Source: a virus (Duplodnaviria; Heunggongvirae; Uroviricota; Caudoviricetes). From it: a DNA stretch of 28,525 nucleotides. Under the pieces are notes generated by a model. That model ran no database searches. It saw only the letters and a program-made list of their open reading frames with translations, and was not told the origin of the DNA. Made by a program: the position numbers and the translations under genes. Below, one piece after another: positions 2,181 to 19,989 of this stretch. Positions within the stretch are counted from its first letter, which is position 1; each line of letters begins with the position of its first letter. The stretch covers positions 1 to 28,525 of the IMG/VR virus record IMGVR_UViG_643348547_000003. One strand, written 5' to 3'.

Positions 2181-2181
2181 C

Positions 2182-2470: not shown

Positions 2471-2478
2471 AACATTCT

Positions 2479-3015: not shown

Positions 3016-3365
3016 AGCATTCTAACTCCCTTAACTTATTTATTACTTTCTCTTTATGATAAGAGAGGGGAATGACTTGGTAAAGTGATTTGTCATTAAT
3101 AATGATAATCCTTGCGATAAATATTTCTGCAAGTTATTTATCTGTTTGTTGCTATCTTGTTAAGCGTTGGGTGTGGTTTATATTTGGAGCGACTTTATTT
3201 AATCGTGATTTTATGGATTTATATTTATATCCTGTAAGATAAGCGCATGTTAGTTTAGGAGTAGTGTCAGATAAAATTATTCGGAGTAGAACTACCTTTT
3301 CTGTTTATTGCCAGTATTTACATAGCAATGCGCCGTAGTTACTCACATCACGGCGCTGATACTAA

Positions 3366-3668: not shown

Positions 3669-3688
3669 AGTTAATCACCAATTTGTTA

Positions 3689-3790
3689 TGTGTATATCAC
3701 TATACACAAAAGTGAGATATAAAAACACTTGCAATGTATATCACCACAATATAATGTATATCTCACATTATGGTCGCTATGTATCTCACA
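3689..3790. promoter_or_regulatory. Divergent promoter/operator region with repeated TGTATATC(T)CAC motifs
   Basis: Palindrome TGTGTATA-TCAC-TATACACA at 3689..3708. Related motif copies at 3712..3721 (reverse orientation), 3734..3744, 3754..3767 and 3779..3790. Located between the divergent genes 3366..3668 (minus) and 3877..4242 (plus). Confidence 0.5.
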
Positions 3791-3876
3791 ATGATCGATT
3801 CATAAAAACGACGAAACCCGGCAGTGCGCGAACACTAACCGGGCTTCTAACCAAACCGTTAAACGAGGTAACTATT

Positions 3877-4242
3877 ATGGCTGGAACACAGCATACCCAA
3901 ACTCACCCTAAATTTATATACATCTTTCTGGCGCTACATCGCGATCGCATAGCAGATGGAGCAACTACGGTACATGTAGCCGCTGACACGCTGGTTGATG
4001 CCCGCAAGATGGTTAAGGAGATGGGCTATACTGCGGCTTTCTGGAAAGGGCGGGAAGAAAACACGCTGTTTATTCAGAAATGTGAAAACAATTTCCTCTG
4101 GCGTTTTATCGCCCTGAGTACGACACAACCGCGCGTGATTACCATCGAGGCCACCAGCGAACAGGAAGCCCGCCAGCAATCCCCAACTGGCTGCGTGATG
4201 ATATTCGCCGCCCGTATTCGTCAGGAGGTGTGCCATGAATGA
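3877..4242 (+). CDS. Hypothetical protein (first gene of the rightward operon)
   Basis: 121 aa, ATG at 3877 preceded by GAGG. This is the 3' portion of the long track ORF 3328..4242, whose upstream part is antisense to the RHH gene. No family assigned. Confidence 0.6.
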   Translation: MAGTQHTQTHPKFIYIFLALHRDRIADGATTVHVAADTLVDARKMVKEMGYTAAFWKGREENTLFIQKCENNFLWRFIALSTTQPRVITIEATSEQEARQQSPTGCVMIFAARIRQEVCHE

Positions 4243-4459
4243 TCTTTATTTTAAAGTGCTGACACATGCTGAAAACGCGCTCGTTTGTGGCAAAAATATG
4301 CGAGAAATCTTATCAACCTGGCTTGATGGGACAACAAATGCGGAACACGATGAACGGGATGCTAATTTAGCTGGAGCGTTAATTACGTTACTTGATCCTG
4401 TCATCAAAGAGCTGGATGAAGCTATAAAAATACACGACCAGAGCTATACCGAAGAATAA
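4235..4459 (+). CDS. Hypothetical protein
   Basis: 74 aa. Start overlaps the upstream stop; AGGAGG six nt upstream of the ATG. Confidence 0.5.
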   Translation: MNDLYFKVLTHAENALVCGKNMREILSTWLDGTTNAEHDERDANLAGALITLLDPVIKELDEAIKIHDQSYTEE

Positions 4460-4461
4460 AA

Positions 4462-4749
4462 ATGAAAAATAAATTTTCTGGCTTTATTGCCAGCGGTCAA
4501 GCTCATTCAAAAATCAGCCTTGGGGATATTTTCAAAGATAGCTATGGCTATCGGGTAAAGATTATTTCGGTTGATGATCGCCGTGTCTCTTATTTGCGTG
4601 ATGGTTATGATTTTGAATGTGTTATGCCGCGTCAGCAGTTCGAAAGAGATTTCATTCTGGTAAAAAATTGCAAGACAGATAATCAGAGGCGTGCCGCAGG
4701 CTATATCCGCAAAATTCGGGCAATGTTAGTTGCCGGAGGTAATAAATGA
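4462..4749 (+). CDS. Hypothetical small protein (possibly DUF4222-like; uncertain)
   Basis: 95 aa, tightly packed in the operon. The segment YRVKIISVDDRRVSYLRDGYDFECVMPRQQFERDFILV resembles what I recall of small conserved satellite/prophage proteins, but no search was run. Confidence 0.5.
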   Translation: MKNKFSGFIASGQAHSKISLGDIFKDSYGYRVKIISVDDRRVSYLRDGYDFECVMPRQQFERDFILVKNCKTDNQRRAAGYIRKIRAMLVAGGNK

Positions 4750-4928
4750 AACGTGCTCCGAACTTAAAATACCAACCGCGCGACAAAATGACAGAAGTCA
4801 TCATTTTTGCTGGCAGTGATGCCTAGAGCCATGCAAAAGAATGGAATGAATGGGCGGGTAAGCATATTGCAGCAGATGATACACCACCAGTAATTCTGGG
4901 TACGGAACAACTGGAAAACCTGGATGAT

Positions 4929-6566
4929 ATGCAAATTATCGATGAAGGCCGTCATTATGTGCGTGTTTATCGTGCCGGAAAGATTGCAGAGAAAAATCTG
5001 ACGAAGGTTGCGACATTACTTGCTATTGCAGGCGTAAAGGAAGCACGTTGTTACCGTAGCTTTGTTGATCGAGAGCCTGAAGACTGGACTCCGCGCCTTG
5101 TCGGCCTAAAAGCTGAAGCGGAGCATGGGGAAAGTCTGGTGATTGAACTGCCAGTGAAGAAGGCTGAGCGCAAAAATGACGAGCGTGCTTCATCTTTGGC
5201 GTTGAATCAGATGGGGGCCAGCCAGCGCGGTGAAGTTCTCCTTGCACATTACGGCGGCGAACTGGCAATCAATGCCGACTCTGACACCGTTCATCATTAC
5301 AACGGCGTTGTATGGGAGCCGGTTCAGGATAAAGAGTTACAGCGTGCTATGGCGCAGATTTTCATTGATGCGGAGATCAGCTATTCGCAGAACGCTATTA
5401 AATCGGCGGTAGATACCATGAAGTTAAGTTTGCCTGTAATGGGGAATACAGCCCGTAACCTGATTGGATTCAGTAACGGGGTATTTGATACCAGAACTGG
5501 TAATTTTCGGGAGCATAACAAAAACGACTGGTTGTTAATTGCCAGTGAATTACCTTTCAGCCCACCAGCAGAGGGGGAAACGCTGGCAACACATGCGCCG
5601 AATTTCTGGAAGTGGTTGCGCCGTTCGGTGGCTGAGAATGACCGCAAGGCAGATCGCGTACTGGCGGCATTATTCATGGTGCTGGCGAACCGGTACGACT
5701 GGCAGTTATTCATTGAGGTAACAGGGCCGGGGGGAAGTGGTAAAAGTGTGATGGCGGAGATTTGCACCATGCTGGCGGGTAAGGCTAATACAGTATCAGC
5801 AAGCATGAAGGCGCTGGAAGATGCAAGGGAACGTGCGTTAGTGGTTGGCTTTTCGCTGATTATCATGCCGGATATGACCCGCTACGCTGGTGATGGGGCA
5901 GGGATTAAGGCCATTACAGGCGGTGACAAGGTGGCAATTGACCCGAAACACAAAGCCCCCTATTCAACGCGTATTCCGGCAGTAGTGCTGGCGGTTAACA
6001 ATAACGCCATGTCATTCAGTGACCGCAGCGGGGGGATCTCACGTCGTCGGGTGATATTCAATTTTTCGGAAGTTGTACCGGAGAACGAACGCGATTCGAT
6101 GCTGGCGGAAAAAATAGAAGGTGAGCTGGCGGTAGTGATTCGTCATCTGCTTACAAGGTTTGCTGATCAGGACGAAGCCAGACGCCTGTTATATGAGCAG
6201 CAGAAATCTGAAGAAGCACTGGCGATAAAGCGAGAGGGGGATTCGCTGGTGGACTTCTGCGGTTATCTCATGGCATCGGTAATGTGTGATGGCCTGTTAG
6301 TGGGTAATGCTGAAATTGTGCCATTCAGCCCACGCAGGTATCTCTATCATGCCTATCTGGCTTATATGAGGGCACATGGGTTTGGTAAACCTGTAACACT
6401 GACGCGCTTCGGTAAAGATATGCCGGGGGCAATGGCGGAATATGGCAGGGAGTATATGAAACGGAAAACGAAGCACGGTTTGCGTTCAAACGTGACCCTG
6501 ACGGAGGAATCAGAAGACTGGATGCCATCATGTGTATCGGTCACTAATGACGATAGCAAAAATTAA
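4929..6566 (+). CDS. Replication protein, P4 alpha C-terminal / D5-like SF3 helicase-NTPase family
   Basis: 545 aa. Walker A motif VTGPGGSGKSV, Walker B-like LIIMPDMT, and a D5_N-like region (VVWEPVQDKELQRAMAQIFID). No obvious toprim primase domain. Immediately followed by an iteron array. Confidence 0.8.
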   Translation: MQIIDEGRHYVRVYRAGKIAEKNLTKVATLLAIAGVKEARCYRSFVDREPEDWTPRLVGLKAEAEHGESLVIELPVKKAERKNDERASSLALNQMGASQRGEVLLAHYGGELAINADSDTVHHYNGVVWEPVQDKELQRAMAQIFIDAEISYSQNAIKSAVDTMKLSLPVMGNTARNLIGFSNGVFDTRTGNFREHNKNDWLLIASELPFSPPAEGETLATHAPNFWKWLRRSVAENDRKADRVLAALFMVLANRYDWQLFIEVTGPGGSGKSVMAEICTMLAGKANTVSASMKALEDARERALVVGFSLIIMPDMTRYAGDGAGIKAITGGDKVAIDPKHKAPYSTRIPAVVLAVNNNAMSFSDRSGGISRRRVIFNFSEVVPENERDSMLAEKIEGELAVVIRHLLTRFADQDEARRLLYEQQKSEEALAIKREGDSLVDFCGYLMASVMCDGLLVGNAEIVPFSPRRYLYHAYLAYMRAHGFGKPVTLTRFGKDMPGAMAEYGREYMKRKTKHGLRSNVTLTEESEDWMPSCVSVTNDDSKN

Positions 6567-6580
6567 ACTTATGGAATAAC

Positions 6581-6801
6581 TGTTCACCACTGTTCACCCT
6601 GTCATAAATATCTTTTATATCAGTATATTATAGGGTGAACAGTTATTTATGAACTGTTCACCAAACTATTCACTGTTCACCTTTTTGATTGTTTATTGAG
6701 CTTCAAGGGTGAACAGTGGTGAACAGTTGGTGAATAGTTTTTGTGAAACTGTTCACCCATTAACATTATGAATTAAAAGAGAAAATATCAAAAGGTGAAC
6801 A
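6581..6801. repeat. Iteron array (putative satellite replication origin): about 9 copies of TGTTCACC / GGTGAACA
   Basis: TGTTCACC at 6581, 6591, 6655, 6674 and 6750. Reverse-orientation GGTGAACA at 6634, 6708, 6718 and 6794. This octamer is the iteron I recall from the P4 ori and crr, bound by the alpha protein. Confidence 0.7.
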
Positions 6802-6853
6802 GGTGAAGGGTTAAAACGCAAAAATTTTAATTTACTGCTGTGAGATAAAGCCT

Positions 6854-7099
6854 ATGACAGCGAAGCACACAAAAAAATCACAATCGCACGCCCTTGATTT
6901 GACGGAACACTGGTTAAGGGTGTCGATAAAAATCATCGACCGCAACGCCGGGGAAGGATACGCGAAAGCACATCCCGAACTGATTAGCGCATTCATGACA
7001 ACGGCGGCTGCAAACTTTGCCACTCTGACCGAACGGGAGATTGCTGAAGCGGAGGAAGTGACAACAATCAATATTAAGTCCGGAGAGCAGGCAGCATGA
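6854..7099 (+). CDS. Hypothetical protein
   Basis: 81 aa. Stop overlaps the start of the SSB-like gene (ATGA). Weak ribosome-binding site. Confidence 0.45.
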   Translation: MTAKHTKKSQSHALDLTEHWLRVSIKIIDRNAGEGYAKAHPELISAFMTTAAANFATLTEREIAEAEEVTTINIKSGEQAA

Positions 7100-7545
7100 C
7101 GGCGCAAATATCAGTTTACGGGCGGTTGGTGGACGACCCGCAGACAAAACAGACCAGCAAGGGCACCCCCATGACGCTGGCGCGTATGGCGGTATCACTG
7201 CCCTGCAGTCAGTCGGATGACGGTCAGGCGACGATGTGGTTATCTGTCCTGGCGTTTGGCAGACAAGCCGACGCGCTGGCAAAGCATCACAAAGGCGAAC
7301 TCCTGAGCGTGGCGGGTAATATGCAGGTGAGCCAGTGGACTGGACAGAACGGTGAAACGCGGCAGGGCTGGCAGGTTATCGCAGACAGCGTAATCAGTGC
7401 GCGAACGGTGCGACCGGGCGGCAAAAAAGGTCAACAGGGTCAGGCTACTGACGCACTGAACAGAGCAAAACAACAGGCAGATCAGCAAGGAAGCCATCCA
7501 CCAGTGGGAGATAATGAGCAATGGGGAGATGATATTCCGTTTTAA
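7096..7545 (+). CDS. Single-stranded DNA-binding protein (SSB-like)
   Basis: 149 aa. N-terminal OB-fold-like region, a Gly/Gln-rich linker and a C-terminal acidic tail ending DDIPF, the hallmark of the bacterial SSB C-terminus. Confidence 0.7.
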   Translation: MTAQISVYGRLVDDPQTKQTSKGTPMTLARMAVSLPCSQSDDGQATMWLSVLAFGRQADALAKHHKGELLSVAGNMQVSQWTGQNGETRQGWQVIADSVISARTVRPGGKKGQQGQATDALNRAKQQADQQGSHPPVGDNEQWGDDIPF

Positions 7546-7563
7546 ATATTGCCAATAAAAAAG

Positions 7564-7588
7564 GCCGGAAAAAAATAAATTTTCCGGC
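7564..7588 (+). terminator. Stem-loop downstream of the SSB-like gene (weak terminator candidate)
   Basis: GCCGGAAAA (7564..7572), 7-nt loop, TTTTCCGGC (7580..7588). No clear 3' U-tract. Confidence 0.35.
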
Positions 7589-7762
7589 ATGCTACATAAA
7601 TCCCGACCAAAGGGAGTGAAGATATTAACACTAATTATCCGCGCTGGAGTTGTTATCCCAAAACTTTATACAACATTGCACTCGGTTGCATGTATTCGCA
7701 TGACAAATATCGGTGATAGCATATATCCACAATTATTTTTAATGAATGCAAAGAGGATGCGT

Positions 7763-8803
7763 ATGGTTGATTTATATTCGCCTACCCAGCTTGTACAGGT
7801 GGTTAATGCTGTAGATGTACAAAAACAACTAAATGCGTTGTTTACCAGTTTGTTTTTTACTCGCTCGGTAATGTTTGAATCGCGCGATATTATTCTTGAT
7901 ACAATCGACGATCCAAATATCCCAATTGCAGCGTTTTGTTCTCCTATGGTAGGTAGTAAAGTTTCACGTGACGAAGGGTACGAATCAAAAACAATTCGTC
8001 CAGGCTATATGAAGCCGAAAAGCAGCATTGATCCAAATAAGTTAGCTGTGCGCCCTGCTGGTGTATCACCTGAGCAATACAATGCTTTTGGAGCGCGTAA
8101 TATTAAAGTTAAACAGGCGATTGTAAATCAGGCTAAAGCTATTCGTGCACGTATTGAATGGTTTGCCGTTCAGGCAATCACAACGGGGAAAAATATCATT
8201 GAGGGCGATGGTATTGAACGTTATGAGCTGGACTGGAATATAAAACCACAAAATATCATCACTCAGTCTGGCGGTACTGAGTGGTCAGGTAAGGATAAAG
8301 AAACTTTTGATCCAAATGATGATATTGAGAGCTACGCAGAATTTAGTGAGGGCGTCACTAATATCATCATTATGGGCGGTAATGTATGGAAGAAATACCG
8401 TTCATTCAGAGCGATAAAAGAGGCTCTGGATACCCGTCGTGGTTCTAATTCCGAACTGGAAACGGCCCTTAAAGACCTTGGTGATTCGGTGAGTTTTAAA
8501 GGGTATATGGGCGATGTTGCGATTGTTGTATACAGCGGGCGTTATACCGACGAGGACGGAACTGAAAAACATTTCCTTGATCCTGATTTGATGGTGCTTG
8601 GCAATACGGCTCTTCAGGGGATTGTCGCCTATGGCGGTATTCAGGATCCGGAGCTAATCCGAATGGGGCTGACTAAAGCCGAACTTGCACCGAAAAACTA
8701 TATTGTGCCTGGTGATCCGGCTATTGAATATGTGCAGACACATTCAGCACCACAGCCAATACCGGCCCGCATCAATCGTTTTGTTACCGTTCGCATTGGC
8801 TAA
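7763..8803 (+). CDS. Major capsid protein, phage lambda gpE family (divergent homolog)
   Basis: 346 aa from the ATG at 7763 (AAGAGGA five nt upstream). Alignable along its length to lambda gpE, with shared motifs NIITQSGGTEWS, DTRRGSNSELETA and GDVAIVVYSG. The 5' extension of the track ORF (7589..7762) is probably untranslated. Confidence 0.85.
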   Translation: MVDLYSPTQLVQVVNAVDVQKQLNALFTSLFFTRSVMFESRDIILDTIDDPNIPIAAFCSPMVGSKVSRDEGYESKTIRPGYMKPKSSIDPNKLAVRPAGVSPEQYNAFGARNIKVKQAIVNQAKAIRARIEWFAVQAITTGKNIIEGDGIERYELDWNIKPQNIITQSGGTEWSGKDKETFDPNDDIESYAEFSEGVTNIIIMGGNVWKKYRSFRAIKEALDTRRGSNSELETALKDLGDSVSFKGYMGDVAIVVYSGRYTDEDGTEKHFLDPDLMVLGNTALQGIVAYGGIQDPELIRMGLTKAELAPKNYIVPGDPAIEYVQTHSAPQPIPARINRFVTVRIG

Positions 8804-8812
8804 GGGGGAGCA

Positions 8813-9154
8813 ATGGCTACTCATTACACTGAACTCATGGCTGGCACTGAAGCACTGGTGACTACGCTGGGGATATTTTCAGCTAATAAAGGGGTAATTC
8901 CTGCATTTACGCCACTGATGCAGGAAGATGCAACAGGTGCACTGGTGGTATGGGATGGTTCGAGCGTAGGTAAAGCGGTTTATGTTTCCGCTGTACAAAT
9001 CGACACCGCGAAAAAAACACAGGCTCAGGTCTATAAGACAGGTGTCTTAAATGTTGATGCTCTGAACTGGCCTGAGTCTGTAAAAGAACTGTCAGTAAAG
9101 ATTGCAGCGTTTGTTGGCTCAGGTATTTCTGTTCAGCCGCTGGCTCGTGTGTAA
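8813..9154 (+). CDS. Head decoration protein, lambda gpD-like
   Basis: 113 aa. TPLMQEDATGALVVWDGSSVG and YKTGVLNVDALNWPE...AAFVGSGISV parallel lambda gpD. Lies downstream of the E-like gene, the reverse of the lambda D then E order. Confidence 0.75.
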   Translation: MATHYTELMAGTEALVTTLGIFSANKGVIPAFTPLMQEDATGALVVWDGSSVGKAVYVSAVQIDTAKKTQAQVYKTGVLNVDALNWPESVKELSVKIAAFVGSGISVQPLARV

Positions 9155-9165
9155 AGGGGGATACA

Positions 9166-9549
9166 ATGCAGAATGATTACAATGACCTTAAGCCACTTGC
9201 CGAAATGATGTACCCGAATCCAGCTGTAGAGGAATTAAAAGCTATCGCTGACAAAATGTGTTTAAGCGAGCGCCTTGTTGATATGAATCAGGTGATGGAA
9301 ATTACAACCCTGAGTCGGCGTACACTGCTAAACCTTGAGGCTAGTGGAGAGTTCCCGGAGCGTGTGCAGGTTACGGAAGGGCGTAAGGCCTGGTATTTAA
9401 GTGAAGTGATCGACTGGATAAATAATATTCCTCGCGCTTCTGAATATTGCCGCGTACCTGTCCCAAAAAAGCCAGATGCGGCGCTATGCCTCAAGATTGA
9501 GCGTGTACGCCGCAATGCACGGGATGGTCGCTATAAGCTGATTGGTTGA
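9166..9549 (+). CDS. AlpA-family HTH regulator with an N-terminal extension
   Basis: 127 aa. Core MEITTLSRRTLLNLEASGEFPERVQVTEGRKAWYLSEVIDWI matches the AlpA/HTH_17 pattern. Second AlpA-like gene in the island. Confidence 0.65.
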   Translation: MQNDYNDLKPLAEMMYPNPAVEELKAIADKMCLSERLVDMNQVMEITTLSRRTLLNLEASGEFPERVQVTEGRKAWYLSEVIDWINNIPRASEYCRVPVPKKPDAALCLKIERVRRNARDGRYKLIG

Positions 9550-9557
9550 TGAAATTA

Positions 9558-9581
9558 GGGCCCGCTCTGGCTGGCGGGTCC
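9558..9581 (+). terminator. GC-rich stem-loop after the second AlpA-like gene
   Basis: GGGCCCGC, 8-nt loop, GCGGGTCC, followed by TTTCC. Imperfect stem and short U-tract. Confidence 0.3.
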
Positions 9582-9713
9582 TTTCCGGCGATCTGACAGG
9601 CTACGGGGCGTCAGGCGCGCAGTTTTTTGCTATTTGTGAAAATTTTCCTGTTTAAGGCGTTTCCGTTCTTCTTCGCCGTAACTTAATGTTTTTATTAAAA
9701 ACACCCCCTAAAA

Positions 9714-9770
9714 AGAAAGGAAACGACAGGTGCTAAAAACAGGCTTTTTGGCCTCTGTCGTTTCCTTTCT
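9714..9770. other. Long perfect 16-bp inverted repeat (structured RNA or bidirectional terminator) in a roughly 600-bp non-coding spacer
   Basis: AGAAAGGAAACGACAG (9714..9729), 25-nt loop with an inner mini-hairpin, CTGTCGTTTCCTTTCT (9755..9770). Lies between convergent genes. Confidence 0.4.
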
Positions 9771-10147
9771 CTGGTTTTGTTGCCATCCGTCGCGGTCTAT
9801 CACCAGAAAAAATCTTATCCCTGAGTTGAATCAGGCCCTATTCAGAAGCGGTCAATAACGCGCCGCTAGCTTCACTTCATAGTTATGGCCTACTTCTGCG
9901 CCATTGCAATTGCTTTATGCGCCTTGATGGTGGAATATAGAGCAAGCAGTTTGCGAATAACAAAGTTTCATATGTTTTTTGCTGTGTGGCTAGACAACTT
10001 TACAGCAGAGTTTTGTGTCAGTTCTTTATGTGTGCAAGCAAGCTTGAGGGGGAATTACTTCTGGCTGCATCTTTGCTTAAGAACAGCAATAATTTAATCA
10101 TAAGGAAATGTATATAAGCCTGATTAAATTTCAGGCTTATTGAAATG

Positions 10148-11290
10148 TTAACTCCTTATTAGAGAGTAAATTCCATCCTCTTTAAGGAAGTCTATTACTT
10201 CAAAGAATGAGATAAAGAATTCCCAAGAACCAAAAGCATATGCATGAATTTCGTAAGGTGCAAAATGGAATCTAAATCCATCACTATTTATTGTGAACGA
10301 GTCTAAGTTACTATCCATGATACCCGTTGCAAACGTACTAATGTCGTCCTCACTTGGTTTTTCACCAGTTTTCTCCCAAAATTCACGAGCTGATTCAGAG
10401 ATTATTTTTTGTTTTATCTTATTAATCGCTTCTTGCTCTTTCCCTTCGGTAAATACATCCCATAAACTAAATTTGTATGCGTAGTCATCCTTGGTTATTA
10501 CGAAATTACTAGTTTCAAAATGACTGTTAGGGTGTGCTGCTCCCGCACCATACCAATGTACGGAATGAAGGATGCTCATAACATTTTCGTTACAGTATGA
10601 GATGTTATAACTTTCATTATAGGAACTAGTGTAAGTGTGTTTATATTCTTCATCCCAATATGGTGTTCCTGGCCATAGTGATGTGCGTTCAGAAAAAATA
10701 TGTAAAGCCGCTTTTCCTGAAAAGTAATCACTAATGAGTTTTGCTGATTTCGGTAATGTATGGCTTTCAATTCTTGGATATGCTATTTCAATTTCATGCC
10801 CTGGGATCTTGTTATATTCTTCCTTGAAAACCTCGCTGCTAAAGTTAAATGGCCCATAAGTGATACCTTGAGATATTTCAAGTTTTTGTTGCGATGCTGC
10901 TAATCTTAAAGATCTAGATAAAATGTCCCAACCATCATTTCTCTTAAAATCAATGAATTGGAGCTTGCTTGATATGTAGGCGGGTACTTCGCAATCATCA
11001 ATAAGTAATGGTATCACGAACACATCATCTGGTTTGTAATACTTTAGTTTATCAATGGCGTCATTTATTTCGCGGCGAATATAACCATTTTTCTGAGTGC
11101 TCACTTTGCTAAGGATAAGGATTATCAAGTTTGAATTAGCGAAGTTTTTTTGGATTTCATAATCCCAGTTTACGCCAGCGGGTATATCTTTTACATCCAT
11201 CCAAGGGGAATATCCTCCACTTTTTAGCCTTTCATAGATTTCTTCAGTTATCGTTTCATCTTCTTTTGCATGAGCAAGAAAAATTTTCAT
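10148..11290 (-). CDS. TIR-domain protein with a C-terminal DUF3298/RsiV-like domain (candidate antiphage effector)
   Basis: 380 aa in an AT-rich segment. The N-terminal 140 aa or so carry TIR-like hallmarks (KIFLAHAKEDE...W.D...I..G......I.ILSKVS...NGYIRREI). The C-terminal region contains HWYGAGAAHPNSHFETSNF...LWDVF, resembling the Y-x-GGAHG signature of DUF3298. SD-like AAGGA upstream of the start. No partner gene adjacent. Confidence 0.75.
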   Translation of the reverse strand: MKIFLAHAKEDETITEEIYERLKSGGYSPWMDVKDIPAGVNWDYEIQKNFANSNLIILILSKVSTQKNGYIRREINDAIDKLKYYKPDDVFVIPLLIDDCEVPAYISSKLQFIDFKRNDGWDILSRSLRLAASQQKLEISQGITYGPFNFSSEVFKEEYNKIPGHEIEIAYPRIESHTLPKSAKLISDYFSGKAALHIFSERTSLWPGTPYWDEEYKHTYTSSYNESYNISYCNENVMSILHSVHWYGAGAAHPNSHFETSNFVITKDDYAYKFSLWDVFTEGKEQEAINKIKQKIISESAREFWEKTGEKPSEDDISTFATGIMDSNLDSFTINSDGFRFHFAPYEIHAYAFGSWEFFISFFEVIDFLKEDGIYSLIRS

Positions 11291-11499
11291 TGAATATTCC
11301 TTTATAATTTAACTAATTAAGTGAAGGAGGCTTTACTTGGCTGTGTTAGAAAAAATTCGGTTTGTTTTTTGTACGATGCCAAGAAGGCTTTTCCCTAACC
11401 ATGTATTGCAGCATGTATTGCTACGTAATTCTGCACCCTCTCATTTATAAAATAAATCTCTGTTAAATCAAGTATCTTTTTTCTATTTGACTCATGTAA

Positions 11500-12288
11500 C
11501 CCAAGCATGAGGTGAATCCGCAGATGACCCTGCGTCGCCTGCCGGATGAAGATCCGCAGAATCTGGCGGACCCGGCTTACCGCCGCCGTCGCATCATCAT
11601 GCAGAACATGCGTGACGAAGAGCTGGCCATTGCTCAGGTCGAAGAGATGCAGGCCGTTTCTGCCGTGCTTAAGGGCAAATACACCATGACCGGTGAAGCC
11701 TTCGATCCGGTTGAGGTGGATATGGGCCGCAGTGCGGCGAATAACATCACGCAGTCCGGCGGCACGGAGTGGAGCAAGCGTGACAAGTCCACGTATGACC
11801 CGACCGACGATATCGAAGCCTACGCGCTGAACGCCAGCGGTGTGGTGAATATCATCGTGTTTGATCCGAAAGGCTGGGCGCTGTTCCGTTCCTTCAAAGC
11901 CGTCAAGGAGAAGCTGGATACCCGTCGTGGCTCTAATTCCGAGCTGGAGACAGCGGTGAAAGACCTGGGTAAAGCGGTGTCCTATAAGGGGATGTATGGC
12001 GATGTTGCCATCGTCGTGTATTCCGGACAGTACGTGGAAAACGGCGTCAAAAAGAACTTCCTGCCGGACAACACGATGGTGCTGGGGAACACTCAGGCAC
12101 GCGGTCTGCGTACCTATGGCTGTATTCAGGATGCGGACGCACAGCGCGAAGGCATTAACGCCTCTGCCCGTTACCCGAAAAACTGGGTGACCACCGGCGA
12201 TCCGGCGCGTGAGTTCACCATGATTCAGTCAGCACCGCTGATGCTGCTGGCTGACCCTGATGAGTTCGTGTCCGTACAACTGGCGTAA
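11500..12288 (+). pseudogene. E: Lambda major capsid protein E, 5'-truncated fragment (about C-terminal 260 aa)
   Basis: Translation PKHEVNPQMTLRRLPDEDPQNLADPAYRRRRIIMQNMRDEE... to ...DPDEFVSVQLA matches my recollection of lambda gpE from about residue 80 to the end. An in-frame TAA sits immediately upstream (11497..11499) and the upstream sequence is unrelated. Confidence 0.85.
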
Positions 12289-12329
12289 TCGTGGCCCTTC
12301 GGGGCCATTTTCTCTCTGTGGAGGAGTCC

Positions 12330-12728
12330 ATGACGAAAGATGAACTGATTGCCCGTCTCCGCTCGCTGGGTGAACAACTGAACCGTGATGTCAGTCTGAC
12401 GGGGACGAAAGAAGAACTGGCGCTCCGTGTGGCAGAGCTGGAAGAAGAGCTTGATGACACGGGCGACACTGCCGGTCAGGATACCCCTCTCAGCCCGGAA
12501 AATGTGCTGACCGGGCATGAACATGAGGTGGTATCAGCGCAGCCGGATACCGTGATTCAGGATACGGCTGAACTGGTCACGGTCGTGGCACTGGTGACGC
12601 TGCATACTGATGCACTTCACGCCACGCGGGATGAACCTGTGGCATTTGTGCTGCCGGGAACGGCGTTCCGTGTCTCTGCCGGTGTGGCAGCTGAAATGAC
12701 AGAGCGCGGCCTGGCCAGAATGCAATAA
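12330..12728 (+). CDS. FI: Lambda-like FI (DNA packaging / head-tail joining accessory protein)
   Basis: 132 aa, MTKDELIARLRSLGEQLNRDVSLTGTKEELALRVAELEEELDD..., near-identical to lambda gpFI as I recall it. GGAGGAG ribosome-binding site. Confidence 0.9.
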   Translation: MTKDELIARLRSLGEQLNRDVSLTGTKEELALRVAELEEELDDTGDTAGQDTPLSPENVLTGHEHEVVSAQPDTVIQDTAELVTVVALVTLHTDALHATRDEPVAFVLPGTAFRVSAGVAAEMTERGLARMQ

Positions 12729-12739
12729 CGGGAGGCGCT

Positions 12740-13093
12740 GTGGCTGATTTCGATAACCTGTTCGATGCTGCCATTGCCCGCGCCGATGAAACGATACGCG
12801 GGTACATGGGAACGTCAGCCACCATGACATCCGGTGAGCAGTCCGGCGCAGTAATACGTGGTGTTTTTGATGACCCTGAAAATATCAGCTATGCCGGACA
12901 GGGCGTGCGCGTTGAAGGCTCCAGCCCGTCCCTGTTTGTCCGGACTGATGATGTGCGGCAACTGCGGCGTGGAGACACGCTGACCATCGGTGAGGAAAAC
13001 TTCTGGATAGATCGTGTTTCGCCGGATGATGGCGGAAGCTGTCATCTCTGGCTTGGGCGGGGCGTACCGCCTGCCGTTAACCGTCGCCGCTGA
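12740..13093 (+). CDS. FII: Lambda-like FII (head-tail connector)
   Basis: 117 aa, MADFDNLFDAAIARADETIRGYMG...HLWLGRGVPPAVNRRR, matching lambda gpFII. Confidence 0.9.
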   Translation: MADFDNLFDAAIARADETIRGYMGTSATMTSGEQSGAVIRGVFDDPENISYAGQGVRVEGSSPSLFVRTDDVRQLRRGDTLTIGEENFWIDRVSPDDGGSCHLWLGRGVPPAVNRRR

Positions 13094-13104
13094 AAGGGGG
13101 ATGT

Positions 13105-13683
13105 ATGGCCATAAAAGGTCTTGAGCAGGCCGTTGAAAACCTCAGCCGTATCAGCAAAACGGCGGTGCCTGGTGCCGCCGCAATGGCCATTAACCGCGTT
13201 GCTTCATCCGCGATATCGCAGTCGGCGTCACAGGTTGCCCGTGAGACAAAGGTACGCCGGAAACTGGTAAAGGAAAGGGCCAGGCTGAAAAGGGCCACGG
13301 TTAAAAATCCGCAGGCCAGAATCAAGGTTAACCGGGGGGATTTGCCCGTAATAAAGCTGGGTAACGCGCGGATTGTCCTGTCCCGACGCAGGCGTCGTAA
13401 AAAGGGGCAGCGTTCAGCCCTGAAAGGTGGCGGCAGCGTGCTTGTGGTGGGAAACCGTCGTATTCCCGGCGCGTTTATTCAGCAACTGAAAAATGGCCGC
13501 TGGCATGTTATGCAGCGTGTGGCCGGGAAAAACCGTTACCCCATTGATGTGGTGAAAATCCCGATGGCGGTGCCACTGACCACGGCGTTTAAACAGAATA
13601 TTGAACGGATACGGCGTGAGCGTCTTCCGAAAGAGCTGGGCTATGCGCTGCAGCATCAACTGAGAATGGTAATAAAGCGATGA
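13105..13683 (+). CDS. Z: Lambda-like Z (tail completion protein)
   Basis: 192 aa, MAIKGLEQAVENLSRISKTAVPGAAAMAINRV..., matching lambda gpZ. Confidence 0.9.
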   Translation: MAIKGLEQAVENLSRISKTAVPGAAAMAINRVASSAISQSASQVARETKVRRKLVKERARLKRATVKNPQARIKVNRGDLPVIKLGNARIVLSRRRRRKKGQRSALKGGGSVLVVGNRRIPGAFIQQLKNGRWHVMQRVAGKNRYPIDVVKIPMAVPLTTAFKQNIERIRRERLPKELGYALQHQLRMVIKR

Positions 13684-14075
13684 AACATACTGAACTCCGT
13701 GCAGCCGTACTGGATGCACTGGAGAAGCATGACACCGGGGCGACGCTTTTTGATGGTCGCCCCGCTGTTTTTGATGAGGCGGATTTTCCGGCAATTGCCG
13801 TTTATCTCACCGGCGCTGAATACACGGGCGAAGAGCTGGACAGCGATACCTGGCAGGCGGAGCTGCATATTGAAGTTTTCCTGCCTGCTCAGGTGCCGGA
13901 TTCAGAGCTGGATTCGTGGATGGAGTCCCGGATTTATCCGGTGATGAGCGATATTCCGGCACTGTCAGATTTGATCACCAGTATGGTGGCCAGTGGCTAT
14001 GACTACCGACGCGACGATGATGCGGGCCTGTGGAGTTCAGCCGATCTGACGTATGTCATTACCTATGAAATGTGA
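13680..14075 (+). CDS. U: Lambda-like U (tail terminator protein)
   Basis: 131 aa, [38 protein letters not shown]..., matching lambda gpU. ATGA overlap with Z. Confidence 0.9.
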
Positions 14076-14082
14076 GGACGAT

Positions 14083-14823
14083 ATGCCTGTACCAAATCCA
14101 GTAATGCCGGTGAAAGGTGCCGGGACCACACTGTGGGTTTATAAGGGGAACGGTGACCCTTATGCGAACCCGCTTTCAGACGTTGACTGGTCGCGTCTGG
14201 CAAAAGTTAAAGACCTGACGCCCGGCGAACTGACCGCTGAGTCCTATGACGACAGCTATCTCGATGATGAGGATGCGGACTGGACTGCGACCGGGCAGGG
14301 GCAGAAATCTGCCGGAGATACCAGCTTCACGCTGGCGTGGATGCCCGGAGAGCAGGGGCAGCAGGCGCTGCTGGCGTGGTTTAATGAAGGTGATACCCGT
14401 GCCTATAAAATCCGCTTTCCGAACGGCACGGTCGATGTGTTCCGTGGCTGGGTCAGCAGTATCGGTAAGGCGGTGACGGCGAAGGAAGTGATCACCCGCA
14501 CGGTGAAGGTCACCAATGTGGGACGCCCGTCGATGGCTGAAGATCGCAGTACGGTGACGGCGGCAACCGGCATGACGGTAACGCCAGCCAGTGCGTCCGT
14601 AGTGAAAGGGCAGAGCACCACGCTGACCGTGGCATTCCAGCCGGAAGGCGTAACCGACAAGAGCTTCCGTGCGGTGTCTGCGGATAAAACAAAAGCCACC
14701 GTGTCGGTCAGTGGTATGACCATCACCGTGAACGGCGTTGCTGCAGGCAAGGTCAACATTCCGGTTGTATCCGGTAATGGTGAGTTTGCTGCGGTTGCAG
14801 AAATTACCGTCACCGCCAGTTAA
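14083..14823 (+). CDS. V: Lambda-like V (major tail protein with C-terminal Ig-like domain)
   Basis: 246 aa from the internal ATG at 14083 ([22 protein letters not shown]...), matching lambda gpV. The track ORF start at 14053 is upstream of the conserved start. Confidence 0.9.
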
Positions 14824-14838
14824 TCCGGAGAGTCAGCG

Positions 14839-15261
14839 ATGTTCCTGAAAACCGAATCATTTGAACATAACGGTGTGACCGTCACGCTTTCTGAACTGTC
14901 AGCCCTGCAGCGCATTGAGCATCTCGCCCTGATGAAACGGCAGGCAGAACAGGCGGAGTCAGACAGCAACCGGAAGTTTACTGTGGAAGACGCCATCAGA
15001 ACCGGCGCGTTTCTGGTGGCGATGTCCCTGTGGCATAACCATCCGCAGAAGACGCAGATGCCGTCCATGAATGAAGCCGTTAAACAGATTGAGCAGGAAG
15101 TGCTTACCACCTGGCCCACGGAGGCAATTTCTCATGCTGAAAACGTGGTGTACCGGCTGTCTGGTATGTATGAGTTTGTGGTGAATAATGCCCCTGAACA
15201 GACAGAGGACGCCGGGCCCGCAGAGCCTGTTTCTGCGGGAAAGTGTTCGACGGTGAGCTGA
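14839..15261 (+). CDS. G: Lambda-like G (tail assembly chaperone)
   Basis: 140 aa, MFLKTESFEHNGVTVTLSELSALQRIEHLALMKRQAEQ..., matching lambda gpG. Confidence 0.9.
   Translation: MFLKTESFEHNGVTVTLSELSALQRIEHLALMKRQAEQAESDSNRKFTVEDAIRTGAFLVAMSLWHNHPQKTQMPSMNEAVKQIEQEVLTTWPTEAISHAENVVYRLSGMYEFVVNNAPEQTEDAGPAEPVSAGKCSTVS
15237..15243 (+). other. Programmed -1 ribosomal frameshift site (G GGA AAG) for the G-T fusion
   Basis: Slippery heptamer GGGAAAG near the 3' end of G, at the point where the T frame opens. This is the conserved lambda G/GT recoding site. Confidence 0.8.
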
Positions 15262-15701
15262 GTTTTGCCCTGAAACTGGCGCGTGAGATGGGGCGACCCG
15301 ACTGGCGTGCCATGCTTGCCGGGATGTCATCCACGGAGTATGCCGACTGGCACCGCTTTTACAGTACCCATTATTTTCATGATGTTCTGCTGGATATGCA
15401 CTTTTCCGGGCTGACGTACACCGTGCTCAGCCTGTTTTTCAGCGATCCGGAGATGCATCCGCTGGATTTCAGTCTGCTGAATCGGCGCGAGGCTGACGAA
15501 GAGCCTGAAGATGATGTGCTGATGCAGAAAGCGGCAGGGCTTGCCGGAGGCGTTCGTTTTGGCCCGGACGGGAATGAAGTTATCCCCGCTTCCCCGTATG
15601 TGGCGGACATGACGGAGGATGACGTAATGCTGATGACAGTATCAGAAGGGATCGCAGGAGGAGTCCGGTATGGCTGCACCGGTAGGCGATCTGGTCGTTG
15701 A
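15243..15701 (+). CDS. T: Lambda-like T segment of the G-T tail assembly chaperone (expressed by -1 frameshift from G)
   Basis: ORF in the -1 frame overlapping the G end (FDGELSFALKLAREMGRPDWRAMLAGMSSTEYADWHRFY...), matching lambda gpT. No independent start is expected. Confidence 0.85.
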   Translation: MFDGELSFALKLAREMGRPDWRAMLAGMSSTEYADWHRFYSTHYFHDVLLDMHFSGLTYTVLSLFFSDPEMHPLDFSLLNRREADEEPEDDVLMQKAAGLAGGVRFGPDGNEVIPASPYVADMTEDDVMLMTVSEGIAGGVRYGCTGRRSGR

Positions 15702-18216
15702 TTTAAGTCTGGATGCGGCCAGATTTGACGAGCAGATGGCCAGAGTCAGGCGTCATTTTTCCGGTACGGAAAGTGATGCGAAAAAAACAGCGGCAGTCGT
15801 TGAACAGTCAATGAACCGGCAGGCGCTGGCTGCACAGAAAGCGGGGATTTCCGTCGGGCAGTATAAAGCTGCCATGCGTATGCTGCCTGCGCAGTTCACC
15901 GACGTGGCCACGCAGCTTGCAGGGGGGCAGAATCCGTGGCTCATCCTGCTGCAACAGGGTGGTCAGGTGAAGGACTCCTTCGGCGGGATGATCCCCATGT
16001 TCAGGGGGCTTGCCGGTGCGATCACCCTGCCGATGGTTGGTATCACTTCGCTGGCGGTGGCGACCGGTGCGCTGGCGTATGCCTGGTATCAGGGTGACTC
16101 AACCCTGTCCGATTTCAACAAAACGCTGGTCCTTTCCGGTAATCAGGCGGGACTGACGGCAGATCGTATGCTGGCCCTGTCCAGAGCCGGGCAGGCGGCA
16201 GGGCTGACGTTTAACCAGACCAGCGAGTCACTGACGGCGCTGGTGAATGCCGGTGTGCGTGGTGGTGAGCAGTTTGAGGCAATCAGCCAGAGTGTGGCGC
16301 GTTTCTCCTCTGCATCCGGCGTGGAGGTGGACAAGGTCGCTGAAGCCTTCGGGAAGCTGACCACTGACCCGACGTCTGGGTTGACGGCGATGGCACGTCA
16401 GTTCCATAACGTGACGGCGGAGCAGATTGCGTATGTTGCTCAGTTGCAGCGTTCCGGCGATGAAGCCGGGGCATTGCAGGCGGCGAACGAGGCCGCAACG
16501 AAAGGGTTTGATGACCAGACCCGCCGCCTGAAAGAGAACATGGGCACGCTGGAGACCTGGGCAGACAGGACTGCGCGGGCATTCAAATCCATGTGGGATG
16601 CGGTGCTGGATATTGGTCGTCCTGATACCGCGCAGGAGATGCTGATTAAGGCAGAGGCTGCGTTTAAGAAAGCAGACGACATCTGGAATCTGCGCAAGGA
16701 TGATTATTTTGTTAACGATGAAGCGCGGGCGCGTTACTGGGATGATCGTGAAAAGGCCCGTCTTGCGCTTGAAGCCGCCCGAAAGAAGACTGAGCAGCAG
16801 ACTCAACAGGACAAAAATGCGCAGCAGCAGAGCGATACCGAAGCGTCACGGCTGAAATATACCGAAGAGGCGCAGAAGGCTTACGAACGGCTGCAGACGC
16901 CGCTGGAGAAATATACCGTCCGTCAGGAAGAACTGAACAAGGCACTGAAAGACGGGAAAATCCTGCAGGCGGATTACAACACGCTGATGGCGGCAGCGAA
17001 AAAGGATTATGAAGCGACGCTGAAAAAGCCGAAGCAGTCCGGCGTGAAGGTGTCTGCGGGCGATCGTCAGGAAGACAGTGCTCATGCTGCCCTGCTGACG
17101 CTTCAGGCAGAACTCCGGACGCTGGAGAAGCATGCCGGAGCAAATGAGAAAATCAGCCAGCAGCGCCGGGATTTGTGGAAGGCGGAAAGTCAGTTCGCGG
17201 TACTGGAGGAGGCGGCGCAACGTCGCCAGCTGTCCGCACAGGAGAAATCCCTGCTGGCGCATAAAGATGAGACGCTGGAGTACAAACGCCAGCTGGCTGC
17301 ACTTGGCGACAAGGTCACGTATCAGGAGCACCTGAACGCGCTGGCGCAGCAGGCGGATAAATTCGCACAGCAGCAACGGGCAAAACGGGCAGCCATTGAG
17401 GCGAAAAACCGGGGGCTGACTGACCGGCAGGCAGCGCGGGACGCCACGGAACAGCGCCTGAAGGAACAGTATGGCGATAATCCGCTGGCGCTGAATAGCG
17501 TCATGTCAGAGCAGAAAAAGACCTGGGCGGCTGAAGACCAGCTTCGCGGGAGCTGGATGGCAGGCCTCAGGTCAGGCTGGAGTGAGTGGGAAGAGAGCGC
17601 CACGGACAGTATGTCGCAGGTTAAAAGTGCAGCCACGCAGACCTTTGATGGTATTGCACAGAATATGGCGGCGATGCTGACCGGCAGTGAACAGAACTGG
17701 CGCAGCTTCACCCGTTCCGTGCTGTCCATGATGACAGAAATTCTGCTTAAGCAGGCAATGGTGGGGATCGTCGGGAGTGTCGGCAGTGTCATTGGCGGTG
17801 CATCAGCGTCAGGCGGTACAGCCATTCAGGCATCTGCGGCGAAATTCCATTTTGCGACCGGAGGATTTACGGGAACCGGCGGCAAATATGAGCCAGCGGG
17901 GATTGTTCACCGTGGTGAATTTGTCTTCACGAAGGAGGCAACCAGCCGGATTGGCGTGGGGAATCTTTACCGGCTTATGCGCGGCTATGCCACCGGCGGT
18001 TATGTCGGTACACCGGGCAGCATGGCGGACAGTCGGTCGCAGGCGTCCGGGACGTTTGAGCAGAATAACCATGTGGTGATTAACAACGACGGCACGAACG
18101 GTCAGATAGGGCCACAGGCGCTGAAGGCTGTTTATGACGTAGCCCGTAAGGCGGCAATGGATGTTGTGACCGGGCAGATGCGTGATGGTGGTCTGTTCTC
18201 CGGAGGTGGACGATGA
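15670..18216 (+). CDS. H: Lambda-like H (tail tape measure protein)
   Basis: 848 aa, MAAPVGDLVVDLSLDAARFDEQMARVRRHF..., near-identical to lambda gpH as recalled, with a small deletion in the Gly-rich region near the C-terminus. Confidence 0.92.
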   Translation: MAAPVGDLVVDLSLDAARFDEQMARVRRHFSGTESDAKKTAAVVEQSMNRQALAAQKAGISVGQYKAAMRMLPAQFTDVATQLAGGQNPWLILLQQGGQVKDSFGGMIPMFRGLAGAITLPMVGITSLAVATGALAYAWYQGDSTLSDFNKTLVLSGNQAGLTADRMLALSRAGQAAGLTFNQTSESLTALVNAGVRGGEQFEAISQSVARFSSASGVEVDKVAEAFGKLTTDPTSGLTAMARQFHNVTAEQIAYVAQLQRSGDEAGALQAANEAATKGFDDQTRRLKENMGTLETWADRTARAFKSMWDAVLDIGRPDTAQEMLIKAEAAFKKADDIWNLRKDDYFVNDEARARYWDDREKARLALEAARKKTEQQTQQDKNAQQQSDTEASRLKYTEEAQKAYERLQTPLEKYTVRQEELNKALKDGKILQADYNTLMAAAKKDYEATLKKPKQSGVKVSAGDRQEDSAHAALLTLQAELRTLEKHAGANEKISQQRRDLWKAESQFAVLEEAAQRRQLSAQEKSLLAHKDETLEYKRQLAALGDKVTYQEHLNALAQQADKFAQQQRAKRAAIEAKNRGLTDRQAARDATEQRLKEQYGDNPLALNSVMSEQKKTWAAEDQLRGSWMAGLRSGWSEWEESATDSMSQVKSAATQTFDGIAQNMAAMLTGSEQNWRSFTRSVLSMMTEILLKQAMVGIVGSVGSVIGGASASGGTAIQASAAKFHFATGGFTGTGGKYEPAGIVHRGEFVFTKEATSRIGVGNLYRLMRGYATGGYVGTPGSMADSRSQASGTFEQNNHVVINNDGTNGQIGPQALKAVYDVARKAAMDVVTGQMRDGGLFSGGGR

Positions 18217-18542
18217 AAACCTTCCGCTGGAAAGTGAAACCCGGTATGGATGTGGCTTCGGCCCCTTCTGTAAGAAAGGTGCGCTTTGGTGATGGCTATT
18301 CCCAGCGAGCGCCTGCCGGGCTGAATGCCAACCTGAAAACGTACAGCGTGACGCTTTCTGTTCCCCGTTGGGAGGCCGCGGCGCTGGAGTCGTTTCTGGA
18401 AGAGCACGGGGGCTGGAAAGCCTTTCTGTGGACGCCGCCTTATGAGTGGCGGCAGATAAAGGTGACCTGCGCAAAATGGTCGTCGCGGGTCAGTATGCTG
18501 CGTGTTGAGTTCAGCGCAGAGTTTGAACAGGTGGTGAACTGA
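18213..18542 (+). CDS. M: Lambda-like M (tail tip protein)
   Basis: 109 aa, MKTFRWKVKPGMDVASAPSVRKVRFGDGYSQRAPAGLNANLKTY..., matching lambda gpM. Confidence 0.9.
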   Translation: MKTFRWKVKPGMDVASAPSVRKVRFGDGYSQRAPAGLNANLKTYSVTLSVPRWEAAALESFLEEHGGWKAFLWTPPYEWRQIKVTCAKWSSRVSMLRVEFSAEFEQVVN

Positions 18543-19240
18543 TGCAGGATATCCGGCAGGAAACACTGAATGAATGCACCCGTGCGGAGCAGTCGGCCAG
18601 CGTGGTGCTCTGGGAAATCGACCTGACAGAGGTCGGTGGAGAACGTTATTTTTTCTGTAATGAGCAGAACGAAAAAGGTGAGCCGGTCACCTGGCAGGGG
18701 CGACAGTATCAGCCGTATCCCATTCAGGGGAGTGGTTTTGAACTGAATGGCAAAGGCACCAGTACGCGCCCCACGCTGACGGTTTCTAACCTGTACGGTA
18801 TGGTCACCGGGATGGCGGAAGACCTGCAGAGTCTGGTCGGCGGAACGGTGGTCAGGCGTAAGGTTTATGCCCGTTTTCTGGATGCGGTGAACTTCGTCAA
18901 CGGAAACAGCGACGCCGATCCGGAGCAGGAGGTGATCAGCCGCTGGCGCATCGAGCAGTGCAGCGAACTGAGCGCGGTCAGTGCCTCTTTTGTACTGTCC
19001 ACGCCGACGGAAACGGATGGTGCCGTTTTTCCGGGGCGCATCATGCTGGCCAACACCTGCACCTGGACCTATCGCGGTGATGAGTGCGGTTATAACGGTC
19101 CGGCTGTCGCTGATGAATATGACCAGCCGACGTCCGATATCACGAAGGATAAATGCAGCAAATGCCTGAGTGGCTGTAAGTTTCGCAATAACGTCGGCAA
19201 CTTTGGCGGCTTCCTTTCCATTAACAAACTTTCGCAGTAA
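18542..19240 (+). CDS. L: Lambda-like L (tail tip protein)
   Basis: 232 aa, MQDIRQETLNECTRAEQSASVVLWEIDLTEVGGERYFF..., matching lambda gpL. Confidence 0.9.
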   Translation: MQDIRQETLNECTRAEQSASVVLWEIDLTEVGGERYFFCNEQNEKGEPVTWQGRQYQPYPIQGSGFELNGKGTSTRPTLTVSNLYGMVTGMAEDLQSLVGGTVVRRKVYARFLDAVNFVNGNSDADPEQEVISRWRIEQCSELSAVSASFVLSTPTETDGAVFPGRIMLANTCTWTYRGDECGYNGPAVADEYDQPTSDITKDKCSKCLSGCKFRNNVGNFGGFLSINKLSQ

Positions 19241-19245
19241 ATCCC

Positions 19246-19989
19246 ATGACAGAGACAGAATCAGCGATTCTGGCGCACGCCCGGCGATGTGCGCCAGCGG
19301 AGTCGTGCGGCTTCGTGGTGAGAACGCCGGAGGGGGAAAGATATTTTCCCTGCGTGAATATCTCCGGTGAGCCGGAGGCGTATTTCCGTATGTCGCCGGA
19401 GGACTGGCTGCAGGCAGAGATGCAGGGTGAGATTGTCGCGCTGGTCCACAGCCATCCCGGTGGTCTGCCCTGGCTGAGTGAAGCCGACCGGCGGCTGCAG
19501 GTGCAGAGTGATTTGCCGTGGTGGCTGGTCTGCCGGGGGACGATTCATAAGTTCCTCTGTGTGCCGCATCTCACCGGGCGGCGCTTTGAGCACGGGGTGA
19601 CGGACTGTTACACGCTGTTCCGGGATGCTTATCATCTGGCGGGGATTGAGATGCCGGATTTTCATCGCGGGGATGACTGGTGGCGTCACGGTCAGAATCT
19701 CTATCTGGATAATCTGGAGGCCACAGGGCTGTATCAGGTGCCGTTGTCATCAGCACAACCGGGCGATGTGCTGCTGTGCTGTTTTGGTTCATCGGTGCCG
19801 AATCATGCCGCCATTTACTGTGGTGATGGCGAGCTGCTGCACCATATTCCTGAACAACTGAGCAAACGAGAGAGGTATACCGACAAATGGCAGCGACGCA
19901 CACACTCCCTCTGGCGTCACCGGGCATGGCACGCATCTGCCTTTACGGGGATTTGCAACGATTTGGCCGCCGCATCGATCTTCGTGTGA
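19246..19989 (+). CDS. K: Lambda-like K (tail tip assembly protein, MPN/JAMM plus NlpC/P60-like)
   Basis: 247-aa ORF with JAMM-like motif ALVHSHPGG and a Cys/His region. The lambda annotation may start at the internal Met corresponding to 19390 (199 aa). Confidence 0.85.
   Translation: MTETESAILAHARRCAPAESCGFVVRTPEGERYFPCVNISGEPEAYFRMSPEDWLQAEMQGEIVALVHSHPGGLPWLSEADRRLQVQSDLPWWLVCRGTIHKFLCVPHLTGRRFEHGVTDCYTLFRDAYHLAGIEMPDFHRGDDWWRHGQNLYLDNLEATGLYQVPLSSAQPGDVLLCCFGSSVPNHAAIYCGDGELLHHIPEQLSKRERYTDKWQRRTHSLWRHRAWHASAFTGICNDLAAASIFV

Follow-up and report, generated by a model that had tools for sequence, protein, structure and literature searches.

A helper-embedded satellite very probably accounts for the split capsid gene E of a lambdoid prophage in Escherichia coli

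The window analysed here, all 28,525 nucleotides of IMG/VR virus record IMGVR_UViG_643348547_000003, contains a lambda-type capsid gene E that begins in mid-gene. The results lead us to conclude that this junction is almost certainly the attR of a helper-embedded PICI (HE-PICI) of the site group E:Phage_cap_E:80, with its core at 11498..11507. The element is of an already known kind, and the window holds a decayed copy of a described satellite. Furthermore, the loss of the head genes and of the 5' part of E is a separate event at 1268/1269 that is unrelated to the junction at 11500. From position 8826 of our locus L015 onward, the sequence of CU928164.2, which we take to be E. coli IAI39, is that of the window; this source was traced through an exact match to the 334-aa protein of the truncated integrase ORF, whereas the 244-aa version from an alternative start matched no more than a short, unrelated contig.

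Lambda-type E homology (97% DNA identity) begins abruptly at 11498, and GC content is 0.336 at 11001..11500 as against 0.578 at 11501..12000. Lambda 6364..8000 corresponds to window 11494..13128 with 97.4% DNA identity; given lambda E coordinates of 6135..7160, the homology begins inside E. An in-frame TAA at 11497..11499 sits where E codon K79 would be, P80 follows at 11500, and the reading frame across the junction is ...L M (stop) P K H E V N P Q M T... As far as the stop codon at 12288, 260 of the 262 residues that start with P80 are those of lambda E 80-341. The PGAP label of the AR_0013 counterpart of this fragment is 'major capsid protein, missing N-terminus'. The features at the junction are the following.

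11402..11421, plus strand, doubled arm-type motif TGTATTGCagcaTGTATTGC of the HE-PICI attP, whose end lies 81 nt upstream of the core centre
11498..11507, plus strand, attR core, a 10-bp identity block AACCCAAGCA that spans from the second base of E codon 79 to the second base of codon 82
11500..12288, plus strand, 3' fragment of the helper prophage E (codons 80-341), recognised by homology to lambda E and a pseudogene in IAI39

Downstream of the E fragment the lambda-type tail series FI-FII-Z-U-V-G-T-H-M-L-K-I-J-lom is complete. The window lacks the beginning of E together with Nu1-A-W-B-C-D, the genes for head and packaging; when window 1..11497 was compared with lambda 1..6371, the only DNA homology was a cos-like stretch (9618..9780), apart from the satellite's distantly related E-like and D-like genes. 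The original prediction, made from the letters of the window, had described an abrupt start of lambda E near 11500, homology from about residue 80 with a TAA directly upstream, missing 5' E and upstream head and packaging genes, and a tail gene set that looked complete; all of this is borne out. Within the stf-like tail-fibre ORF (24824..27229) a 249-bp segment occurs twice, in overlapping copies that are ~84% identical (25364..25612 and 25553..25801), and the stf-like region of AR_0013 and CE10 is annotated by PGAP as several fragments or pseudogenes.

Comparison with an uninterrupted prophage, which had been proposed as a check, was possible with CE10. At argU, this close O7:K1 relative has the same prophage as the window, and its E is uninterrupted, encodes 341 aa and contains the core in codons 79-82. 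The occupied site is seen in AR_0013, to which window 1269..28525 is 99.66% identical; there, E codons 1-82 border the island on the left, with D, C, B, W, A and Nu1 before them. AACCCAAGCA is identical in the attL of AR_0013 and the attB of CE10, such that attB, attL and the attR of the window align base for base on the core. The junction cores of AR_0013 lie at L001 10773..10782 and 21499..21508, the second of which corresponds to window 11498..11507, and when the two E halves of AR_0013 are joined across the core the product is a 341-aa E without stops that shares 339 of 341 residues with lambda E. An IS3-family element interrupts gene FI in CE10 (L018 19653..21309), so the CE10 prophage is also decaying, by a different route.

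The doubled motif (TGTATTGC; written TGTATTGCnnnnTGTATTGC) ends at -81 from the core centre in the window, where it has one match as against 0.01 expected by chance. A second copy starts at +133, downstream of the core centre, in AR_0013 and is deleted in the window. Related loci with both island ends usually have the motif twice (8 of 11 at exact match), always with the same spacing, and it is absent from lambda and from the empty-site strain CE10. Because attL is not visible in IAI39, integration in this lineage is deduced from near-identical relatives, the only places where attL and the downstream arm motif are seen, both being absent from the window and from IAI39. The direct repeat that the original prediction sought to the left of the IS and integrase is likewise unobtainable in IAI39, because attL is deleted.

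The attL junction is present in 175 of 5426 complete genomes. Among complete genomes, 15 with the TIR cargo described below have the 11498 junction base for base. Ten further loci, found via the AlpA protein, have the same int-alpA island between D and FI, and in these as in AR_0013 the left junction has the same 10-bp core. The 5' part of E and attL are kept in the relatives examined in detail (AR_0013, L006-L008 and L010).

HE-PICIs were described by Tommasini, Mageeney and Williams (NAR Genomics and Bioinformatics 2023, PMC10111431). Their prototype, Eco567.11capE of E. coli NRG857c, lies inside the lambda-type E of a lambdoid prophage, disrupts E and brings its own capsid gene, and its 10-bp identity block is aacccaagca (PMC10111431). 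The E:Phage_cap_E:80 site accounts for 201 instances, with 290 more at 13 other late-gene sites, and a clade-specific doubled motif, tgTGTATTGCantgTGTATTGCa, occurs 81+/-2 bp upstream and 132+/-2 bp downstream of the attP centre (PMC10111431). For AR_0013 the supplement has the entry Eco10186.11.E_Phage_cap_E_80 (CP032204.1/5242183-5231458, helper Eco10186.52.R, block aacccaagca), the same block being listed for Eco10186.11 and Eco567.11 (PMC10111431). Its coordinates convert to L001 10776..21501, which are the junctions that we mapped independently. IAI39 was not found in the accessible part of the supplement text of PMC10111431.

As far as sequence can tell, the island in the window has every feature of an HE-PICI at E80. 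The insertion lies in E at about codon 80, with the left half of E visible only in relatives; AACCCAAGCA is the 10-bp identity block; and the doubled motif is spaced as in the clade, upstream in the window and downstream in AR_0013. The integrase belongs to the E80 subclade by its identity to that of the prototype, with which residues 109-411 agree at 302 of 303 positions and the full-length AR_0013 protein at 409 of 411. The zones follow in the order int, alpA, regulatory, primase/SSB and E-like/D-like, on the plus strand like E, and over 1269..3996 and 4061..9780 the backbone is 99.2-99.3% identical to that of the prototype, whose genes stand in the same order. The gene content is also that of a Gram-negative PICI in general (10-20 kb; int, alpA and pri-rep; few virion genes; helper-dependent). 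P4-like satellites are recognised by Sid, Psu, Delta and a tRNA att site, whereas no Sid, Psu or Delta homologue was found when island proteins (most ORFs) were scanned against Pfam and PHROG, and the att site lies in E; a cf-PICI has a complete head module of its own (capsid, protease/scaffold, portal, head-tail adaptors and terminase), of which this island has only the E-like and D-like genes. The view that a capsid gene would be an unusual target for a P4-type integrase is outdated: the clade targets prophage late genes, with E codon 80 the commonest site (PMC10111431), and a capsid-gene target is typical for this integrase clade.

The satellite-like island occupies window 1269..11497, with nearly all genes on the plus strand, and in its complete form in AR_0013 measures ~10.7 kb. 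It comprises the following features.

1269..2180, plus strand, tyrosine integrase reduced to codons 109-411; comparison with the full AR_0013 protein shows the loss of the N-terminal arm-binding domain
2182..2409, plus strand, alpA (activator/excisionase family) of the integration zone, Pfam Phage_AlpA E=3e-15
2479..4749, mixed strands, variable regulatory zone, with the same gene order in the prototype
2479..3015, minus strand, predicted membrane protein of 178 aa and low GC (~0.31), regulatory zone
3366..3668, minus strand, YlcI/YnfO, regulatory zone
3877..4242, plus strand, Icd-like protein, regulatory zone
4235..4459, plus strand, 74-aa protein, regulatory zone
4462..4749, plus strand, DUF4222, regulatory zone
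4746..7545, plus strand, replication zone, from Pfam matches
4746..6566, plus strand, primase-helicase D5_N/DUF5906/Pox_D5, with nonsense codon W27* at 4824..4826
6854..7099, plus strand, 81-aa protein, replication zone
7096..7545, plus strand, SSB, replication zone
7763..9549, plus strand, late zone, from Pfam/PHROG matches
7763..8803, plus strand, the satellite's own E-like major capsid gene, Phage_cap_E E=5e-41
8813..9154, plus strand, D-like decoration gene, late zone
9166..9549, plus strand, second AlpA/Xis-like HTH gene, late zone
9590..9780, plus strand, satellite cos-like site; the cosB portion shares 91% identity with lambda 13..176
9781..11442, minus strand, variable cargo slot between cos and the attP arm; similarity to the prototype ends at 9780 and resumes at 11443
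10148..11290, minus strand, TIR-DUF3298 gene of 380 aa, N-terminal TIR_2 (E=3e-21) and C-terminal DUF3298

The full AR_0013 integrase has 411 aa, with Arm-DNA-bind_3 at 7-93 and Phage_integrase at 213-377. The AlpA of the window is the same RefSeq protein as in the prototype of NRG857c. For the 178-aa membrane protein no Pfam, PHROG or PADLOC family was found; all the related HE-PICI loci that were examined have it in this place, flanked by alpA and YlcI/YnfO. No Bro-N domain was detected in the regulatory zone. Although C4/isrK immunity RNAs have been reported in some PICIs (PMC10111431), an Rfam scan at gathering thresholds returned only the IS3 ALIL pseudoknot and no C4/isrK RNA. The primase nonsense codon was identified against the intact 606-aa gene of NRG857c and is followed by a 545-aa ORF that restarts at 4929. 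It is common to AR_0013, whose copy PGAP flags as 'internal stop', and L006, and is absent in NRG857c, L007, L008 and L010.

In the late zone (PHROG matches phrog_29, phrog_49 and phrog_2790), the E-like protein is 42% identical to lambda E and the D-like protein 38% identical to lambda D. Pfam and PHROG searches found no portal, protease, terminase or tail gene in the island. In two related loci the second AlpA-like gene is followed by a small terminase gene of the Nu1 family (L009 17875..18417 and L011 17876..18418), and E80 HE-PICIs thus differ in the amount of their own packaging machinery.

The AT-rich DNA upstream of the junction, which the original prediction had regarded as unrelated, is the TIR-DUF3298 cargo gene together with the attachment-site arm of the satellite. 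PADLOC matched TIR-DUF3298 at the TIR domain only (N-terminal 120 residues), matched none of the neighbouring genes and called no defined defence system. The same slot in relatives holds GmrSD_N+HEPN (L003, NRG857c), Abi_C (L009, L011), AF_1680 (L005) and others. This resembles the defence-gene hotspots known from other satellites, including P4-like ones.

Where lambda and the AR_0013 helper prophage (L001 4404) have GGGCGGCGACCT at cosN, the satellite has GGGCGTCAGGCG, so that 5 of 12 bases differ from those of the helper. A cos site of its own would let a lambda-type terminase package the satellite. If functional, the E80 cos would represent an undescribed packaging-specificity trick in which, for example, helper TerS binds normally and cleavage or end-joining is incompatible with helper genomes; we consider this a long shot. 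Separately, that the IAI39 remnant has been retained for a working single-gene TIR-DUF3298 defence is similarly doubtful.

What removed the head genes lies at the other end of the island. In L015 the order to the left of the window is folD, the sfm fimbrial operon, fimZ, tRNA-Arg (argU), the 3' end of the helper intD and IS629, the last of which runs into the window.

1..1268, minus strand, IS629 (IS3 family), part of a complete element of 1310 bp that begins 42 nt left of the window

The complete IS629 corresponds to L015 8784..10093, has unrelated flanks and shows no target-site duplication. OrfA (888..1214) and OrfB (1..891) are both on the minus strand, and the ALIL frameshift pseudoknot lies at 817..933. 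A CE10 copy matches the element at 99.9% identity; for the corresponding copy in AR_0013 the annotation reads 'IS3-like element IS629 family'. At 1268/1269 the IRL end of the element meets the satellite integrase gene directly at codon 109, so that the locus reads argU-intD'-IS629-int(109-411). Relative to AR_0013, ~19.7 kb (AR_0013 record 5241690..5261387) is absent at the IAI39 locus. The missing DNA comprises a DLP12-type early remnant (ybcL to Q), the lysis cassette and iss/bor; Nu1, A, W, B, C, D and E codons 1-82; and attL with integrase codons 1-108, including the arm-binding domain. The IS/integrase junction was found in none of 5426 complete E. coli genomes, a collection evidently without the source strain.

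An assignment of the 5' half of E to window 537..782, derived from the AR_0013 annotation, was rejected, as 1..1268 is an IS that is absent at that AR_0013 position. Deletion by recombination between two direct IS629 copies was also considered and leaves the arrangement unexplained: the resident IS629 of CE10 and AR_0013 is oppositely oriented and 6-9 bp off. The IAI39 copy is inverted, with its intD' junction that much further left than in those strains (L015; L018 1885..3194; L017). The resident IS629 of AR_0013 is itself interrupted by a group II intron (ltrA). In L011 (5469..9601) a second, independent satellite integrase is broken by IS21-family and IS3-family genes inside int, which suggests that IS inactivation of HE-PICI integrases recurs.

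Were the junction at 11500 a deletion endpoint, at which an illegitimate or IS-mediated event fused island DNA to E, one would point to the head genes and 5' E that are truly missing in IAI39 and to the IS at the left of the island. However, the actual deletion endpoint is at 1268/1269, 10 kb from 11498, the 11498 junction is shared unchanged by the 15 genomes with TIR cargo, and the relatives examined in detail keep 5' E and attL. The core and arm-motif geometry at 11498 is moreover that of a recombinase site, and we regard a deletion endpoint here as very improbable. Lambdoid phages are highly mosaic, and the E-like, D-like and cos-like sequences upstream might suggest that 11498 is instead a mosaic boundary within one phage lineage, in which recombination within E, homologous or illegitimate, brought in the AT-rich DNA as a moron or accessory module. 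Against this, the same prophage in CE10, likewise at argU, lacks the inserted DNA altogether and has E uninterrupted. The block itself lies between att sites and encodes an integrase, AlpA, a primase and SSB of its own. Its E-like gene shows only the low identity given above to lambda E, here standing for that of the helper, and among 86 E-matching phage records we saw no plaque-forming phage with the block in a single capsid arrangement. A mosaic boundary is thus hardly credible.

The least probable reading considered here is that a tRNA-targeting P4-like satellite landed at a secondary, off-target site in E. Its integrase would be of the P4/PICI type with an arm-binding domain, as is the one observed, and a few off-target events as well as a tRNA-Phe group with a very similar integrase have been reported (PMC10111431). 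E codon 80 is nevertheless the primary and commonest site for this subclade, with the instances counted in PMC10111431 and the 175 complete genomes found here, and homologues of P4 Psu, Sid and Delta were lacking among the island proteins scanned, which were most of the ORFs. Of the options raised in the original prediction, an integration site inside E therefore stands, and a deletion endpoint and a recombination scar do not, on the evidence of the left junction with the same core in relatives and of the intact E in CE10.

For integration of the HE-PICI into E, the following course is proposed. The target would be a lambdoid genome, whether already resident or newly arriving (here the prophage at argU, the DLP12 site), whose E codons 79-82 contain the 10-bp core of attP; a tyrosine integrase of the P4/PICI type would recombine the two copies of the core. 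The satellite and the late operon point in the same direction, and, judging from the literature, the late transcript probably reads into the satellite. On the model of the prototype, for which qPCR and deep sequencing showed that the composite excises and replicates first and that the satellite excises later (PMC10111431), the satellite would ride in the helper and be passively replicated with it after induction. Late excision would then re-form an intact E and allow the helper to make heads. The prototype in NRG857c is the only element for which excision, replication and helper dependence have been documented. In IAI39, the IS629-associated deletion joined the truncated helper intD to satellite integrase codon 109, and the cycle should no longer be able to run. 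Because attL and the integrase N-terminus are lost, no excision is predicted in IAI39; the satellite copy is probably immobile and E permanently split.

Eco567.11capE and the window satellite share the target codon, the core, the arm motif and its spacing, the gene order, a 99% identical backbone and the late-operon orientation. They differ in the cargo before attR, which is HEPN+DUF262 in the prototype and TIR-DUF3298 in the window, and in the site of the helper, which is icd in the former and argU (the DLP12 site) in the latter. In addition, the prototype excises, whereas the IAI39 copy, without attL and integrase codons 1-108 and with a primase nonsense codon, should not. Eco10186.11 of AR_0013 is similar to the window in its TIR cargo, primase nonsense codon and argU helper prophage, but retains attL, the full integrase, 5' E and the head genes that IAI39 is without.

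EcCICFT073, a cos-type PICI of Gram-negative bacteria (Fillol-Salom et al. 2018, 2019; PMC6092414, PMC6739421), is comparable in size, in its int-alpA-pri order, in having a capsid homologue and a cos site, and in its use of a lambdoid helper. In contrast to the window satellite, which lies inside its helper, EcCICFT073 integrates in the chromosome, and it needs RppA (PMC6092414, PMC6739421), whereas no Rpp-sized gene was recognised in the window satellite. The cosN of EcCICFT073 is phage-like and its cosB differs (PMC6739421); the satellite described here is the reverse, with a lambda-like cosB and a different sequence at the cosN position. P4 itself has in common with the window satellite a related integrase family (arm-binding domain plus tyrosine recombinase), a D5/alpha-type primase-helicase, an AlpA-family regulator and a cargo hotspot. 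P4, however, has a tRNA target and a P2-like helper, where the window satellite has a phage capsid gene target and a lambdoid helper.

These results have a practical consequence for annotation. When a 'major capsid protein, missing N-terminus' pseudogene is met beside AT-rich DNA in an E. coli prophage, HE-PICI att sites should be checked for before a deletion is called. Taken together, the locus in IAI39 is best understood as a probably immobile satellite remnant with TIR-DUF3298 cargo, joined to what is left of a dead prophage, its tail half. IAI39 thereby shows, in a clear natural case, how an embedded satellite and its helper decay together: an IS629-linked deletion removes one att site and part of the integrase and locks E in its split state.
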